This document shows, in pieces, positions 16,281-23,641 of a stretch of DNA of 64,000 bases. Source of the DNA: a virus; the UHGV virus genome UHGV-0139776; one strand, given 5' to 3'. The translations under genes and the position numbers were made by a program. How positions within the stretch are numbered: the first letter of the stretch is position 1; each line of letters starts with the position of its first letter. The notes under the pieces are model-generated. The model was given only the letters and a program-made list of their open reading frames with translations. It was not told where the DNA came from and made no database searches.

Positions 16281-16352
16281 CAGTTACAGTGTCACTTTTA
16301 ATGCTGGTGGAGTGCGCCCACCAGCATTTTTTTCGTCCAATGAGGAGGGCAT

Positions 16353-16859
16353 TTGAGTATTTTCAATAAACACGCACACCAGGAACGTCCGTATATCGTC
16401 ATAGTTGATATTGATGGAACAATATCAGAGGCAACTGAAGACAGACTGCATTTGCTTCCGCCACCAGGTAAAGGTGCATTAACAAAGGACTGGAACGAGT
16501 TTAATCTCGCCTGTGACACTGATACTCCCATAACTCCAGTTATTGATATTGTGCGCCAGTTATTTAACGTTTACACGGTCTGGTTTGTAACCGGGCGCTG
16601 TGAGATCGCAAGGGATAAAACACGAGCCTGGCTGCGGAAGTACGTAACAAACGGGGCTGAGCCTTTGCTATCTATGCGTCCTGCCACCGATGACAGAAAT
16701 GACGGCCCAGCAAAGATTGATCTCCTTAAGAAAATTGGTCTAAGTAAAATCGCGTTCGCGCTGGAAGATAAGATTGAAGTGGCGCGTGTTTTCAGGAGTC
16801 ACGGCGTACTTACGTTAATGGTCAGGGAGTATGAAAACGCGCTTCTCCATCAACAATAA
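16353..16859 (+). CDS. pap: HAD-superfamily phosphatase-like protein
   Basis: VDIDGTIS (DxDGT) catalytic motif. Confidence 0.65.
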   Translation: MSIFNKHAHQERPYIVIVDIDGTISEATEDRLHLLPPPGKGALTKDWNEFNLACDTDTPITPVIDIVRQLFNVYTVWFVTGRCEIARDKTRAWLRKYVTNGAEPLLSMRPATDDRNDGPAKIDLLKKIGLSKIAFALEDKIEVARVFRSHGVLTLMVREYENALLHQQ

Positions 16860-16875
16860 TTGCTCTAATAAATCT
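16859..16875 (+). promoter_or_regulatory. C1 operator-like site
   Basis: ATTGCTCTAATAAATCT overlapping the stop codon. Confidence 0.65.
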
Positions 16876-16957
16876 TGATTTTTAAAACAGAGAAAGTGAA
16901 AATAAAAACATGCCGCAAGGCGCGGCATGTATCCAATCAATCACAGGAGCTGAAAAT

Positions 16958-17044
16958 ATGAACACGGCATTCAAAATCATTATGGCCGCGATCTATTTCT
17001 GGCTGTTCTCTATCACTTTTGGCGGCATCGTCGCACATGGGTAA
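16958..17044 (+). CDS. 28-aa hydrophobic peptide
   Basis: RBS AGGAG 7 nt upstream; MNTAFKIIMAAIYFWLFSITFGGIVAHG; leads the downstream operon. Confidence 0.3.
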   Translation: MNTAFKIIMAAIYFWLFSITFGGIVAHG

Positions 17045-17053
17045 GGGGGATGC

Positions 17054-17458
17054 ATGAAAGGCGAAGTGAAAGAGCGCGGCATGATTTTCAACGATGAGAT
17101 GGTCCGGGCCATCATCGAAGGAAGGAAAACGCAGACGCGGCGGATAATGAAAAATCAGCCTGCGGAAGTTGGTCCAGAAGCACCAGTGATGGTTAGAAAA
17201 ATTGGTGCAGGTTTTCAGTGGTACGGGGCTGATGGTGTAAGCAGTGTCTTCAATTGCCCCTTTGGTATCGTCGGCGATCGAATTTGGGTTCGTGAAACAT
17301 GGGCGATATTAGGCAATGAGGATGGTTGTAGTGTGGACTGGAACGACAACCTTTGTCGTGGTGATGAGAAGAACGCAGCAAGGATTTATCGGGCCAGTTG
17401 TGAGCAAAAGCCTGGTGATTACGGCTTATGGTCGATACCGGCTGTGAACATCCTCTGA
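17054..17458 (+). CDS. ASCH-domain protein
   Basis: IIEGRKTQTRR ... GDRIWVRETW matches the ASCH GxKxxExR / GDxhxhxE pattern. Confidence 0.55.
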   Translation: MKGEVKERGMIFNDEMVRAIIEGRKTQTRRIMKNQPAEVGPEAPVMVRKIGAGFQWYGADGVSSVFNCPFGIVGDRIWVRETWAILGNEDGCSVDWNDNLCRGDEKNAARIYRASCEQKPGDYGLWSIPAVNIL

Positions 17459-18201
17459 CGTATCGCTTTATTCGTGAGGTTGTGAAGTTCTGGAACGTAC
17501 CGCTAACGGTGTTGCAGGTCGATATAAATCCAGAACTTGGGCAGCCAAATGGTTATACGGAATGGGGACCAAAGGATATTCAGACGCGAACGCCGGTGCT
17601 TAAACCGTTTATGGACATGGTTAAAAAGTACGGTACGCCATACATCGGCGGCGCGTTCTGTACTGACAGGCTAAAACTCACCCCTTTCACGAAATATTGC
17701 GATGACCATTTTGGGCGAGGGAATTACATCACATGGCTCGGTATTCGTGCGGACGAACCCCGTAGGCTGAAACCGAAACCGGGCGTCCGGTATCTTGCCG
17801 AGCTGTCAGATTTTGATAAGTCGGATGTTATCCGGTGGTGGCGAAAACAACCTTTTGATTTGCAAATCCCGGAGCACCTCGGGAACTGTGTTTTTTGCAT
17901 CAAAAAGTCAACGCAAAAGCTGGGGCTTGCATGTAAAGACGAACCAGGTCTGATGCGGGTTTTTAACGAACTGGTTACAGGCAAACACGTCAGGGATGGT
18001 CATCGCAGAACAGGTAAAGACGTTATGTACCGTGGTCACCTGACGCTTGACGGGATTGCCAGAATGTATGCCGACAGCGACTACAGAAATTTGTATCAGG
18101 CGATGGTGCAGGCCAAGCGGTTTGATACTGGTTCGTGTTCCGAATCATGTGAAATCTGGGGTGACCAATTGGAGTTGAAATTCGAAGAGGTAGTGGCATG
18201 A
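17428..18201 (+). CDS. PAPS-reductase-like protein lacking the N-terminal PP-loop
   Basis: begins at the DTG..P.TY motif that in CysH follows the PP-loop; LGIRADEPRR core present. Confidence 0.55.
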   Translation: MVDTGCEHPLTYRFIREVVKFWNVPLTVLQVDINPELGQPNGYTEWGPKDIQTRTPVLKPFMDMVKKYGTPYIGGAFCTDRLKLTPFTKYCDDHFGRGNYITWLGIRADEPRRLKPKPGVRYLAELSDFDKSDVIRWWRKQPFDLQIPEHLGNCVFCIKKSTQKLGLACKDEPGLMRVFNELVTGKHVRDGHRRTGKDVMYRGHLTLDGIARMYADSDYRNLYQAMVQAKRFDTGSCSESCEIWGDQLELKFEEVVA

Positions 18202-18401
18202 CAATCGTAAAAACCCATACCGGTACCGTGATCACCAAAGATGGCCCGCAGGTAAAAAAACTGCACCAAACAGAGCGGATGTGGGTCGTTGGCAAAAACG
18301 AGTTTTACCACAAAGAAACTGGACGCCGCCATTTTGCAGAAAATACGCGCCGCCGACTGCTGTTAGACACCATCAAGCCTATCGAGGTGAAGCATGTTTA
18401 A
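18198..18401 (+). CDS. hypothetical protein
   Basis: 67-aa ORF, start overlaps upstream stop. Confidence 0.4.
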   Translation: MTIVKTHTGTVITKDGPQVKKLHQTERMWVVGKNEFYHKETGRRHFAENTRRRLLLDTIKPIEVKHV

Positions 18402-18633: not shown

Positions 18634-19274
18634 GTAACCGTTTTTACATGATGTGCTTGCGTGAAACTGTGGGTAATAACGCCTCATTCCATTGCCATAA
18701 CGGCAATGGTTACAGTTCTGATATCGATCGCGCTCATGTTTACACGCTGGAAGAAGCCCAAAAAGCCTGGAATTGTGGGCGAGATATCGATCAGCCTGTT
18801 TGTGCCGATAGTGTGGATGCAATGGCTGTGTGGCACGTTGATTGCCAGTACATCCCTACAGAAAGCCTGATTGAGTCAGATTGCACTGCGTATGTGGCCT
18901 ACAAAAAAGGTAGCTGGAACGGCAACGATGTTTACTGGCTTCAACACGGTGGATTGCCAACAGATGACTTCAGTAAAGCGACCATCTTTAGCGTCGCCAA
19001 CAAAAACGAACCAGGAATAGTTTGGTTGCCATTTTCCATTGCTGATGCAGCAAAGCGCCGGACGTTCAATATCAATAAATTTAACCGCAGAACAATGGTT
19101 CAGGGCGCAGGTTTGGTCATGCCTGACTGGTTGAAAAAGCAGAACAGAAGAAAGAAGTCGCGAAGCGGGAAGGTGCGTTGGAATTGTCCGCATTGCGGAA
19201 AAATCACCTGGCAGTACAGCCCATATGATTTTGAAGGCTGTCGTGATTACAACTGTGAAGGATGGCGAGAATGA
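18630..19274 (+). CDS. zinc-ribbon protein
   Basis: GTG start 6 nt after AAGGAGG; C-terminal CPHCGK...CRDYNC cysteine cluster. Confidence 0.5.
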   Translation: MSNRFYMMCLRETVGNNASFHCHNGNGYSSDIDRAHVYTLEEAQKAWNCGRDIDQPVCADSVDAMAVWHVDCQYIPTESLIESDCTAYVAYKKGSWNGNDVYWLQHGGLPTDDFSKATIFSVANKNEPGIVWLPFSIADAAKRRTFNINKFNRRTMVQGAGLVMPDWLKKQNRRKKSRSGKVRWNCPHCGKITWQYSPYDFEGCRDYNCEGWRE

Positions 19275-19993
19275 CAATTGACTATCAGGTACTGCGTGAG
19301 GCGGCAGAAAAGGCAACACCAGACGAATGGGTCGCATTTATTTCGCCGGGTACTGGTACATATGCGGTGCATACACCCGGTGATAAACGATGTGGAGACG
19401 TTATCAAATGGCCCGGCTTTGATGGACAGGAAAACGCAGAGAATAACGCTCGTTATGTTGCCGCGTTCAACCCAAAGGTTGCACTGGAGCTGCTTGGTGA
19501 AATTAAGCGCCTGGAGGACACAAATATTGATGCTATGTGTCGAATTGCAGAGCTTGAGACTAATCTCGCGGCGCTGGTGGCGGAGAATGCGGGGCTTAAG
19601 GCCTTCAAAACCGCCGTTTATCAGCAGATGGGCGTCGGATGTGATGCTCCTGAATTCTCCATTACGGTAGGTTTGAGTAACTTACGTCGTTTTGCTGACA
19701 CACTCCACGCCATTGAGCGTGAGTTCTTTACCAAAGAGCTACCTGATGAAGAGCACGAAGGCGAAACATTCAATGAATGTCCACTTAGCTGGGGAATGAG
19801 CGTCGAACAGTACGTTTCCGAGTTTCGCAAATGCCTGGCTGAAGTGCGGGCGCAGGGATTGGAGATGTTTGCACAGAAATGTAACTCAAAATCCGAACAG
19901 TCATTTGCATCTGATATACGCGATAACTGGAAACTACTCGGTGAACATGCCACTGACTTTGCCGCAGAGCTTCGAAAAGGAGGCAACCAGTGA
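19262..19993 (+). CDS. Ea22-like coiled-coil protein, paralogue 1
   Basis: N-terminus TIDYQVLREAAEKAT shared with next gene. Confidence 0.5.
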   Translation: MARMTIDYQVLREAAEKATPDEWVAFISPGTGTYAVHTPGDKRCGDVIKWPGFDGQENAENNARYVAAFNPKVALELLGEIKRLEDTNIDAMCRIAELETNLAALVAENAGLKAFKTAVYQQMGVGCDAPEFSITVGLSNLRRFADTLHAIEREFFTKELPDEEHEGETFNECPLSWGMSVEQYVSEFRKCLAEVRAQGLEMFAQKCNSKSEQSFASDIRDNWKLLGEHATDFAAELRKGGNQ

Positions 19994-20742
19994 GCAAGAT
20001 TGACTATCAGGCACTGCGTGAGGCGGCAGAGCGTGCAATTCCGGCAATGGAACGCCTGTTAATGTTGCCAGTTGATGATGATCTGATAAGCGAACAGGAA
20101 CTTAAAGATTACGGCGTGGATATTGATGCGCTCAACGCCTTCAAATTTCTGACCGGACCAGAAACCGTGCTGGCGCTGCTGGATGAACGGGAAAGAAACC
20201 AGCAATACATAAAACGCCGCGATCAGGAGAACGAGGATATTGCGCTAACGGTAGGGAAGCTGAGAGTTGAGCTTGAGGAAGTAAAACAACACGCTGAAGA
20301 ATTATCCGAAACCAAGGCTGTTCGTAACCAATGGCGGCCAGATATTTGCCCAATAACCGGACGTGCATTTTTCATGTGGATTGAGCATCCAACATTGGGA
20401 AATGTGCCGACATATGGTGGCCCATTAGATAGTTACACCATTCCAACAAAGGACGGTGACGGTGAGTTTTCATGTGAGCGTTACGATCATGATTTTGGCG
20501 GTTGGGTAGAAAGCGAATGTCTTGGGGTATATCTGATTGATGATAGAGAACAATGCAGGGTCTACGAACTGGAGGAACGCGTTAAGGAACTGGATGCTCG
20601 GGAAATATCGCTCCCGGAACGTAGCAGCATGCTTCATCGAACAGATTTTCACGATGATTACCAAACGGTAATGGCATACAAAGTTTCTGAAGTCATCGCT
20701 GCAATCCGCGCCGCAGGCATTCGCATCAAAGGAGGTGAGTAA
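19990..20742 (+). CDS. Ea22-like coiled-coil protein, paralogue 2
   Basis: N-terminus KIDYQALREAAERAI. Confidence 0.5.
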   Translation: MSKIDYQALREAAERAIPAMERLLMLPVDDDLISEQELKDYGVDIDALNAFKFLTGPETVLALLDERERNQQYIKRRDQENEDIALTVGKLRVELEEVKQHAEELSETKAVRNQWRPDICPITGRAFFMWIEHPTLGNVPTYGGPLDSYTIPTKDGDGEFSCERYDHDFGGWVESECLGVYLIDDREQCRVYELEERVKELDAREISLPERSSMLHRTDFHDDYQTVMAYKVSEVIAAIRAAGIRIKGGE

Positions 20743-21793: not shown

Positions 21794-22593
21794 TCACTAT
21801 TACCAAAGAGCGACTGCTGACAATCAAGCAGTGGCGCGAAACATACGGACCTGGTAGCAACGTTGTACTGCCAGCAGAAGAAGCGGAAGAACTGGCACGA
21901 ATTGCTCTGGCATCGCTGGAAGCAGAACCGGTTGCAGTAAACGACGACATGGCTTACGCATTCCATCACGCATTGTCAGATTCATCGCTAGGCGCTGATG
22001 AAGTAGAGGAAATTAAGGCCGGTTTGCGTGCTGCCTTTGCCAACGTCACTATCCAACCAGAGCCGGTAGTGCCGGATGAAATCGAGTTAGCAATTGAAAA
22101 CCTCAAGCAGAAATTAGTGGAATGCAATCGCTATAACTACTGCGCAGATGCAGTGAAGAACGTTGAGGATGCCTGCCACGCTGCCATGCTTCAGGGTAGC
22201 CAACCTGTAAGCCAAACTTACAAGTTGCCAGTTAATACACCTTGCCAAGATGCGCCAGCCCATATCTGGCTGCAAACAGCTGGAGTATGGCCAGAAGATG
22301 GCGAGTTAAGCGAATTAACGTGGTGCAGCCACAATCAGCACCATGATGACACGCTATATGTTCGAGCTGACCTTGTGAATGGCAACTATCCGGTAACTCC
22401 GGATGGTTGGATAAGCTGTAGTGAGCGAATGCCCGCTCAAGATGATTGGATTTTAATTTATTCAAAGCACGGCGAGTATATGGCAGGACAGGTACAAGGG
22501 GAATACGTGGAGTTGAGCGACGGCACTTTATCGTGGTTAGGGAACGCCTTGTACTGGATGCCGCTACCAGAACCGCCGCAGGAGGCGAAATGA
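21790..22593 (+). CDS. DUF551-like phage protein
   Basis: C-terminal W...ERMP...YWMPLPEPP signature. Confidence 0.5.
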   Translation: MITITKERLLTIKQWRETYGPGSNVVLPAEEAEELARIALASLEAEPVAVNDDMAYAFHHALSDSSLGADEVEEIKAGLRAAFANVTIQPEPVVPDEIELAIENLKQKLVECNRYNYCADAVKNVEDACHAAMLQGSQPVSQTYKLPVNTPCQDAPAHIWLQTAGVWPEDGELSELTWCSHNQHHDDTLYVRADLVNGNYPVTPDGWISCSERMPAQDDWILIYSKHGEYMAGQVQGEYVELSDGTLSWLGNALYWMPLPEPPQEAK

Positions 22594-22850
22594 TGGATGT
22601 AAAAGAGAAGGTTTTGCAGGTGATGCGTTCCCGGGCTGCCCTGCAAGATAAAGCTCTCGGCGGGGAATATCCATTCAGGATGGCAACCTGGAATCTGCGG
22701 TTGGCAATGGAGAAGGAATTTCCTGATGAAGAATGGCGTTCGGCAGATTTGCGCAAAATTCTTATGGAGATGGCTAAAGATGGAACAGTATCCAAAGATA
22801 CCCATGCCAGCCGGATTGGTCAGGCGGTATGGAGACTGGAGGTGAGATAA
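22590..22850 (+). CDS. hypothetical protein
   Basis: 86-aa ORF, ATG overlaps previous stop. Confidence 0.4.
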   Translation: MMDVKEKVLQVMRSRAALQDKALGGEYPFRMATWNLRLAMEKEFPDEEWRSADLRKILMEMAKDGTVSKDTHASRIGQAVWRLEVR

Positions 22851-22935
22851 TGAGCTGGCCTGAAGCATTCGCAACGGTAGGAATTGTGATGGCGGCAGCA
22901 CTGGGTTTGTATTCAATTTGTCGCTGGTGGTAACG

Positions 22936-23169
22936 ATGGGAAAATTAACTTTTGTAGTCGAATTTGAGGATGGTAAAGAGCCACCTGTTAGCGCCAATCT
23001 TGATGTTGCTGGTGGCAGGCTTGTTTCGGTTCTATTTGGTGACTACCGAGATGATTTCTTCCAACCAGAAGAAGTTGATGTGGTGCGAGAGGCATTAAAC
23101 GAGTTAAGTGTTGATAACGATGATGCTCATGCGGAAATCATCCAAAAAATGGAGCTGCTAACTCACTAA
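22936..23169 (+). CDS. hypothetical protein
   Basis: 77-aa acidic ORF. Confidence 0.35.
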   Translation: MGKLTFVVEFEDGKEPPVSANLDVAGGRLVSVLFGDYRDDFFQPEEVDVVREALNELSVDNDDAHAEIIQKMELLTH

Positions 23170-23347
23170 ATTATCAATTATGGTGCTATCACCTACGACA
23201 CCGAGAGAAAATTTATAATGTCAAAAGTAAATGTTTTGATTTTTTCAGCAATTGTTGGCTTTGGTTTTACTGCCGGAGTGCAGATTTATATTACGTGGGA
23301 AAAAATCATCAACTACGCATGGAGTTGTTTTATTAAGTGAGGTAAGT

Positions 23348-23641
23348 ATGTGGAGAGGTAATAGTCATGGCAAAAGCCAGATGATACTTACCGGATATCA
23401 GCTCGACCACAAAACCAATAAATCACGTTCAGTATATTTGCTTCGCCACAATAGCCGCGTAAGGAATACCGTACTGGAGCAAAATCTGACCGTTGAAATG
23501 GATAATTACGGGGGCTTCAAGCCAACAATATCGCTTGATGATTTTCCTCGTGGTTTAAGCGAAAGAGAAGCAATGCTGAAATTAGCAGAATGGCTACAAA
23601 GATTAAGCATTGCTATTGAAGATAACTGGTCTGAACCTTAA
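23348..23641 (+). CDS. hypothetical protein
   Basis: 97-aa ORF. Confidence 0.35.
   Translation: MWRGNSHGKSQMILTGYQLDHKTNKSRSVYLLRHNSRVRNTVLEQNLTVEMDNYGGFKPTISLDDFPRGLSEREAMLKLAEWLQRLSIAIEDNWSEP

Follow-up and report, generated by a model that had tools for sequence, protein, structure and literature searches.

The window, i.e., the whole stretch of 64,000 nucleotides analysed here (UHGV virus genome UHGV-0139776), is by its sequence a P1-like phage-plasmid. The segment of interest is 99.9% identical to E. coli plasmids of 95-100 kb, e.g., pE2865-1, with which the window is collinear for more than 30 kb. Such plasmids encode a C1 repressor, Phd/Doc, a Cre-like integrase, Dmt, a Ban-like DnaB and the P1 structural genes. 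The locus displays synteny and near-identity with the P1 (Punavirus) gene order ppp-pmgQ-pmgR-pmgS-pap-OpmgT-pmgT. The metagenome contig OBJQ01000118.1 (locus L078), which is 100% identical over 14,134 nt, is the window's own contig and presumably its source.

The region begins with the C1 repressor operator OpmgT, formerly Op88 (ATTGCTCTAATAAATCT; 16859-16875, plus strand). All 17 of its 17 bases are those of the respective phage P1 feature (NC_005856, 84293-84309). Two predicted sigma-70 promoters, P2pmgT and P1pmgT, overlap the operator at about 16860-16903 in positions homologous to P1. Between promoter and the first small reading frame lies an inverted repeat whose 10 pairs enclose a loop of 3 nt (ACATGCCGCaaGGCGCGGCATGT; 16908-16930, corresponding to 21864-21886 in locus L004). 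It is conserved in P1 and has a terminator-like score on the minus strand only. The small ORF (16958-17044, plus strand) is preceded by AGGAG 8 nt upstream and specifies a hydrophobic peptide of 28 aa, MNTAFKIIMAAIYFWLFSITFGGIVAHG; its stop is located 9 nt ahead of the pmgT start. The peptide is unchanged in 71 of 72 related loci. The distinct substitutions, three synonymous and one non-synonymous, appear too scarce to serve as proof of coding. A PHROG profile search with the 28-aa peptide gave no match.

Two larger ORFs follow on the plus strand. The first (17054-17458) has 134 aa, the second (17428-18201) has 257 aa and begins with MVDTGCEHPLTY. They share 31 nt (17428-17458), which are read in different frames. 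A third frame is open at 17316-17447, which is trivial. Thereafter comes an intact gene of 67 aa (18198-18401, plus strand) whose start overlaps the stop of the second ORF in the sequence ATGA; in Stx phages this gene also comes after ninC. All reading frames described in the original prediction, i.e., the small ORF, the two overlapping ORFs and the third open frame, are present. The arrangement is not fortuitous; it results directly from a deletion of 463 bp which has joined the 5' part of one gene to the 3' part of the next.

This becomes evident when intact relatives are aligned. In pE2865-1 a gene for a PmgT protein of 242 aa is followed, after a spacer of 9 nt, by a gene for a NinC-type protein of 290 aa. 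The annotations of pE2865-1 and pKD0845-2 agree: a gene of 729 nt, the 9-nt spacer and a gene of 873 nt, the latter annotated as 'phosphoadenosine phosphosulfate reductase family'. In the best 30 of 40 E. coli records the whole query is covered as two pieces with identities of up to 99.9%, spanning 1814 bp as opposed to 1351 bp in the window. Similarly, a 141-nt junction probe extends over 604 bp in E. coli relatives and 141 bp in the window. Exact mapping demonstrates homology to L004 up to its position 22395 and again from 22853, with an overlap of 6 nt, GATACC. At the junction this hexanucleotide is present as a single copy, at 17434-17439 (plus strand); intact relatives have two copies at a distance of 463 bp. 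The window sequence across the junction is GGTCGATACCGGCTGTG.

Of the 463 bp lost, 343 nt belonged to pmgT at its 3' end and 111 nt to ninC at its 5' end, the 9-nt spacer making up the remainder. In terms of codons, the last 114 of pmgT and the first 37 of ninC including the PP-loop are gone. What remains are codons 1-128 of pmgT (17054-17437, plus strand) and codons 38-290 plus stop of ninC (17440-18201, plus strand). The two remnants are in different frames because 463 is not a multiple of 3 (463 = 3 x 154 + 1). The first ORF consists of the pmgT remnant and then of ninC sequence read out of frame; after 6 codons in ninC it reaches a stop at 17456-17458. The ATG which opens the second ORF is pmgT sequence (TTATGGTCG) that by chance is in frame with the ninC remnant. 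It is this fortuitous ATG which creates an apparently PP-loop-less ORF.

The missing parts are not encoded elsewhere in the window. A tblastn search with the intact proteins against all six frames of the 64 kb retrieved residues 1-129 of PmgT and 33-290 of NinC and nothing further, and the coverage of Pfam and PHROG profiles is shortened as the deletion predicts. A 46-nt probe specific for the junction had no match in 5,426 complete E. coli genomes or 72,556 plasmids. This negative result is validated by an equivalent probe over the intact site, which detects 268 records. The junction was found in none of 60 viral loci carrying the left flank, and among 25 metagenome loci with this flank it is present only in L078, the window's own contig. 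With about 99% identity, the remnants have hardly diverged from the intact relatives; therefore, the deletion is recent.

The pmgT remnant is 100% identical to residues 1-129 of the intact pE2865-1 protein. PHROG 874 is matched at positions 61-160 by the remnant and at 61-259 by the intact protein. Phage P1 PmgT (gp095, 'putative morphogenetic function') is 98.4% identical at the DNA level over 578 nt, which take in the operator, the small ORF and the first 128 pmgT codons. Unlike in P1, the window gene ends as pmgT at codon 128. P1 pmgT is likewise 3'-chimeric, yet at another place: it diverges after ...AATCCCTGGGT and encodes 309 aa compared to 242.

The original prediction had assigned an ASCH fold to the first ORF. 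Neither the remnant nor intact PmgT has a Pfam or NCBIfam match to ASCH (PF04266), and PmgT has no sequence match in the PDB, profile search included. In newer RefSeq annotation the intact protein is named 'ASCH domain-containing protein'. For an intact PmgT homologue an AlphaFold model was built from 24 sequences. It is of low confidence (mean pLDDT 54); when it was searched against the PDB with Foldseek the best 15 matches were all ASCH proteins, with target-normalised TM scores of 0.43-0.67. These comprise E. coli YqfB (an ac4C amidohydrolase), PH0355, EF3133 and ASCH proteins from Lactobacillus and Zymomonas. In the model (pLDDT 54) the barrel is formed by residues 8-81 and 161-230, between which about 80 poorly modelled residues are inserted. 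Compared with other ASCH proteins the PmgT fold would thus seem to be split. The N-terminal motif G-R-K-T-Q-T-R-R is one which we take to resemble the GxKxxExR region of ASCH proteins. Judging from this low-confidence model, the ASCH label for PmgT appears plausible, not proven. In any case, the window ORF is the N-terminal half of PmgT only, unlike full ASCH proteins; it lacks the residues equal to positions 161-230, the C-terminal barrel strands of the model (pLDDT 54).

The second ORF had been described as a PAPS-reductase-like frame without a PP-loop, and this is correct as far as it goes: it is a homologue of lambda NinC, a PAPS-reductase family protein, with its N-terminus missing. Compared with residues 33-290 of the intact protein, the remnant has 98.4% identity. 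At the DNA level, similarity to ninC of Stx-converting and related phages begins exactly at 17434 and amounts to 94.7-94.9% identity. PHROG 33262 is matched with E = 5e-80, at positions 36-279 by the remnant and at 1-279 by the intact protein. Against lambda and Stx-phage NinC the remnant matches PHROG 424 and PHROG 33262 up to the end, from position 36 or 195 onward; it lacks the first 35-37 residues including the PP-loop SFSGGRTS. The setting also differs: here ninC resides in a P1-like plasmid prophage, lambda ninC in the lambdoid nin region. With PF01507 the second ORF scores 14.9 bits over profile positions 31-65, below the Pfam gathering threshold of 22.5 bits, whereas the intact relative reaches 37.4 bits over positions 3-65. 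The intact relative carries the PP-loop SFSGGRTS at residues 6-13. Neither the window ORF nor any of the six frames of the window contains this ATP-binding PP-loop (SGGxxS).

Taken together, the region is, with high confidence, the scar of one microhomology deletion of 463 bp by which both pmgT and ninC became pseudogenes. Pseudogenisation, one of several readings originally put forward, is thereby confirmed, as both ORFs are remnants from a single event. The ancestral order was promoter/operator, the 28-aa small ORF, pmgT (242 aa), the 9-nt spacer, ninC (290 aa) and small downstream genes, in the pmgT operon which C1 represses; this arrangement persists in close relatives. An illegitimate, microhomology-mediated deletion between the two copies of GATACC has taken out 463 bp. 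Thereupon the pmgT frame enters ninC out of frame and ends 6 codons on, and a chance ATG within pmgT sequence opens the ORF of the ninC remnant. The NinC remnant may be translated from this fortuitous ATG; a GGTGA is located 11 nt ahead of it, which is poor spacing. Both products are probably non-functional, NinC because the ATP-binding loop is gone and PmgT because the C-terminal beta-barrel strands of the model are missing. The loss would be tolerated because both are dispensable accessory genes. In P1, pmgT, pmgU and pmgV are non-essential, as is ninC in lambda (PMC10695390). P1-like phage-plasmids have eight hypervariable regions, and the stretch from pmgT to humD belongs to these (PMC9603915). 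We found no literature on NinC or PmgT function beyond essentiality screens.

Could the short frame be a genuine PP-loop-less enzyme which, together with an ASCH nucleic-acid-binding partner, forms a module for nucleic-acid modification? Adjacent pmgT and ninC genes do occur in some P1-like plasmids. Further, PAPS-reductase-fold proteins include nucleic-acid-modifying enzymes, and weak NCBIfam matches to DndC/TilS were obtained. Against this, the PP-loop S[FL]SGGR[TS]S is retained near the N-terminus in 116 of the 120 closest NinC homologue clusters (median length 282 aa). The remaining four are two chimeras, one fragment and one miscalled start (P0077), in which the gene call began at an internal Met with the PP-loop in frame just upstream. 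Hence, a naturally short NinC does not exist among these 120 clusters, nor do they include diverged homologues which begin at the DTG motif and are kept by purifying selection. The pairing of the genes is not maintained either. Gathered by DNA pattern, 68 P1-like loci were informative: 31 have pmgT without any ninC, 24 have a ninC remnant and only 8 have both genes intact. Two of the ninC-remnant loci which were checked (L017 and L019) share the same internal deletion of 795 bp. Phage P1 has pmgT and no ninC, and in Stx and lambdoid phages ninC is found without pmgT, the gene ahead of ninC in Stx phages being unrelated to PmgT. The pair is not an obligate functional module; in most P1-like loci ninC is independently deleted or absent. 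A natural PP-loop-less NinC variant acting with an ASCH partner is, in our view, highly improbable.

A programmed ribosomal frameshift within the 31-nt overlap, yielding a functional ASCH/PAPS-reductase fusion, is extremely improbable. A -1 shift would indeed connect the overlapping frames, yet the overlap exists only by virtue of a deletion which is private to the window's contig; relatives have two separate genes 9 nt apart, and the overlap is not conserved among them. No slippery heptamer of the type X XXY YYZ is present when the sequence 17428-17458 is read. Any fusion would still be devoid of the PP-loop and the C-terminal half of PmgT. Because none of the six frames of the window contains the 114 pmgT and 37 ninC codons, a frameshift is unable to restore either protein, and recoding is not supported. 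The junction itself is known from one metagenome assembly only, OBJQ01000118.1, and is absent from all other collections searched, as might be expected of an assembly or sequencing artefact. Such an origin is very unlikely. Repeats of 6 nt are far below the length at which a de Bruijn or overlap assembly would collapse, and nine more deletions with the same left end are present in unrelated assemblies, two closed plasmids among them; therefore, real deletions start at this very nucleotide.

The deletion by itself carries little weight: a recent event has inactivated two dispensable accessory genes. It is ordinary gene decay in an already known hypervariable, dispensable region. Neither a new enzyme class under the designation 'PP-loop-less PAPS reductase' nor a recoding site under that of 'possible frameshift' should be propagated. 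The repeated loss of ninC from P1-like elements by several different deletions is of modest interest for phage-plasmid evolution. Only the recurrent endpoint within pmgT is worth following up.

Among close homologues of the PmgT remnant many chimeric forms exist, and all of them break after ...GDYGLWSI. At the DNA level they have an identical left flank ending in ...TTATGGTCGATA, followed by unrelated sequence. With further cases from pattern scans and a search of complete genomes, ten distinct deletions have exactly the same left end, TGGTCGATA^CC (17437/17438 in the window), at least nine independent events besides that of the window. These are the window, P0121, P0122, P0124, P0126, P0127, P0128, L042, L089 and L099/L101, the last pair being two closed plasmids (NZ_CP062896.1 and NZ_CP062884.1). 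Their sources are various P1-like plasmids from E. coli and Salmonella, gut metagenomes and the two closed plasmids. When placed on intact relatives, the right ends fall within ninC, the small genes that follow it, Ea22-like genes and DUF551 genes; those placeable on pE2865-1 are located 0.46 to about 5.3 kb downstream. At eight of the ten junctions there is a microhomology of 2-6 nt, i.e., TA, ATA, GATA or GATACC. The other two, P0124 and L099, have none, and therefore the left break is fixed between A17437 and C17438.

Three of eight scorable right ends are positioned in the loop of a hairpin with 5 bp or more; among TA sites of the background the proportion is 3.5% (binomial test, post hoc, p about 0.002). 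One of them is the only TA in the loop of an 8-bp hairpin within 7 kb. Leftward deletions were absent from 56 viral loci with the right flank, in which the left flank was always the usual one. In an unbiased sample of 85 loci 82 were intact and three had hotspot deletions. Other deletions in this region end elsewhere and are non-recurrent.

Several familiar causes of such an endpoint were considered and rejected. For Cre/lox, the left site aligned by eye on the TA agrees with a loxP arm at 2-5 of 13 positions. Half-sites of Cin/cix and Xer/dif-cer, compared in the form of what we take to be their consensus sequences, have a partial likeness (TTATGGT...), with the known cleavage positions off the junction. 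Terminal inverted repeats, or a second copy of the left flank as expected for an IS or MITE end, did not exceed chance, and no IS element follows the left flank in about 95 loci. A stable hairpin at the left site is disfavored by folding z-scores of only -1.3 and -1.65. No promoter or terminator is predicted at the hotspot, and Rfam reports three tRNAs in the window, none of them nearby. The window has 50 perfect Chi sites, none at the hotspot, the nearest on the plus strand being at 16303; a Chi-like GCTTATGG, which ends 6 nt before the break, agrees at 6 of 8 positions and is considered unlikely to be relevant. Concerning restriction, neither an EcoP1I nor an EcoP15I site (type III) is at the right distance. 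An ACGGC site (BceAI-type, 12/14) would cut exactly at GATA^CC; a fit of this kind is expected by chance among about 100 known type IIS specificities, and to our knowledge no BceAI-type enzyme is known in enterobacteria.

Could TGGTCGATA^CC then be a site-specific DNA break or nick site in pmgT? This is possible, and we advance it tentatively, considering it less than an even chance. The pattern would best fit a site-specific nick or a replication block, with subsequent template switching or microhomology-mediated repair, because the left 3' end is fixed and unresected, microhomology is optional, hairpin loops are preferred and deletions proceed in one direction. A fixed, unresected 3' end would join downstream single-stranded DNA. 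Its origin might be a nick in the bottom strand at which replication runs off, or a strong pause with template switching. If so, hypervariable region 8 would be sculpted by P1-like elements themselves, by way of a nicking activity or replication feature as yet unrecognised, or by a nuclease of the host which targets them. A site-specific nick or break would provide a concrete handle on the remodelling of a hypervariable region in widespread, often resistance-carrying elements.

Illegitimate deletions anchored at site-specific nicks are known from the rolling-circle origins of M13 and pC194 (literature of the 1980s). Unlike at these origins, neither a nickase nor an origin nor a recognisable nick-site motif was found at the pmgT site. 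By way of analogy, and with no claim of membership in this class, the pmgT site may nevertheless be likened to them: in the M13 and pC194 deletions one end is fixed to the nucleotide while the others vary with little or no homology, as is the case here, and the likeness extends to the several right ends which are located in hairpin loops.

Inside the ASCH-like gene pmgT, ten distinct deletions from different P1-like plasmids have exactly the same left end, TGGTCGATA^ (loci L006-L012, L042, L089, L099 and L101). This recurrent end lies at 17437/17438 of the window, which corresponds to 22393/22394 of L004, the intact relative used for mapping. The right ends of these pmgT-anchored deletions differ from one another. 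Microhomology of 2-6 nt is present at eight of the ten junctions and absent from the other two; eight of the right ends could be scored, and three of these are positioned in hairpin loops. No deletions extending leftward from the pmgT endpoint were seen.

The ninC site at which the window's deletion ends may be a recurrent endpoint, too. In a lambdoid prophage, protein P0103 joins a YfdP-like N-terminus to NinC (L103, 3120-3140). In this chimera, which is independent of the deletion in the window, the ninC homology begins at TACCGG inside the DTGCEHP motif, where the window's deletion has its right end. Because both events meet ninC at the same TACCGG, this site is possibly a second recurrent endpoint. 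A further NinC homologue, P0077 (L102, 2444-3280), seemingly has no PP-loop as its public gene call begins at an internal Met; the true start is 57 nt upstream and encodes MKNVVSLSGGRTS.

In P1-like phage-plasmids ninC is decaying. Across loci L013 through L098, the gene (L004 22748-23620) was intact in only 8 of 68 P1-like loci, present as a remnant in 24 and absent from 31. The remnant examples which were checked, L017 and L019, have a 795-bp internal ninC deletion in common (22805-23599). Loci L036 and L051 have other deletions, of 929 bp and 687 bp, respectively.

The 3' end of pmgT is chimeric in the reference phage P1 as well (NC_005856; L096, 4390-4624). After ...AATCCCTGGGT, the P1 gene product of 309 aa departs from the form of 242 aa; beyond this divergence the P1 gene reads into sequence resembling the context upstream of a DUF551 gene.

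Upstream of pmgT, a small ORF preceded by a good Shine-Dalgarno sequence (window 16958-17044) codes for a hydrophobic peptide of 28 aa and ends 9 nt ahead of the pmgT start. Of 72 related loci, 71 have this peptide unchanged, and it may be a genuine small membrane protein. The P1 record carries no annotation for the ORF; in the P7 and SJ46 records a gene 'upf86.8' or 'membrane protein' is annotated under the matched stretch which includes it. An inverted repeat (16908-16930), with 10 pairs around a loop of 3 nt, separates the C1-controlled promoter from the small ORF. Only on the minus strand does a T-run follow; judged by sequence, the repeat therefore looks like a terminator acting on antisense transcripts or a hairpin that stabilises the 5' end.

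Two tandem Ea22-like genes (19262-19993 and 19990-20742) possess a nearly identical 32-nt 5' segment (19277-19308 and 19999-20030), a feature typical of the mosaic and recombination-prone genes that follow pmgT. Three tRNA genes (1434-1506, 1512-1584 and 3224-3296) match the annotated tRNA cluster (Asn, Tyr, Thr, Ile) of the close intact plasmid relative pE2865-1. Perfect Chi sites (GCTGGTGG) number 50 in the whole 64-kb window against an expectation of 1.6, and 35 of the 50 lie on the plus strand; the P1 genome is known for an exceptional density of Chi sites.
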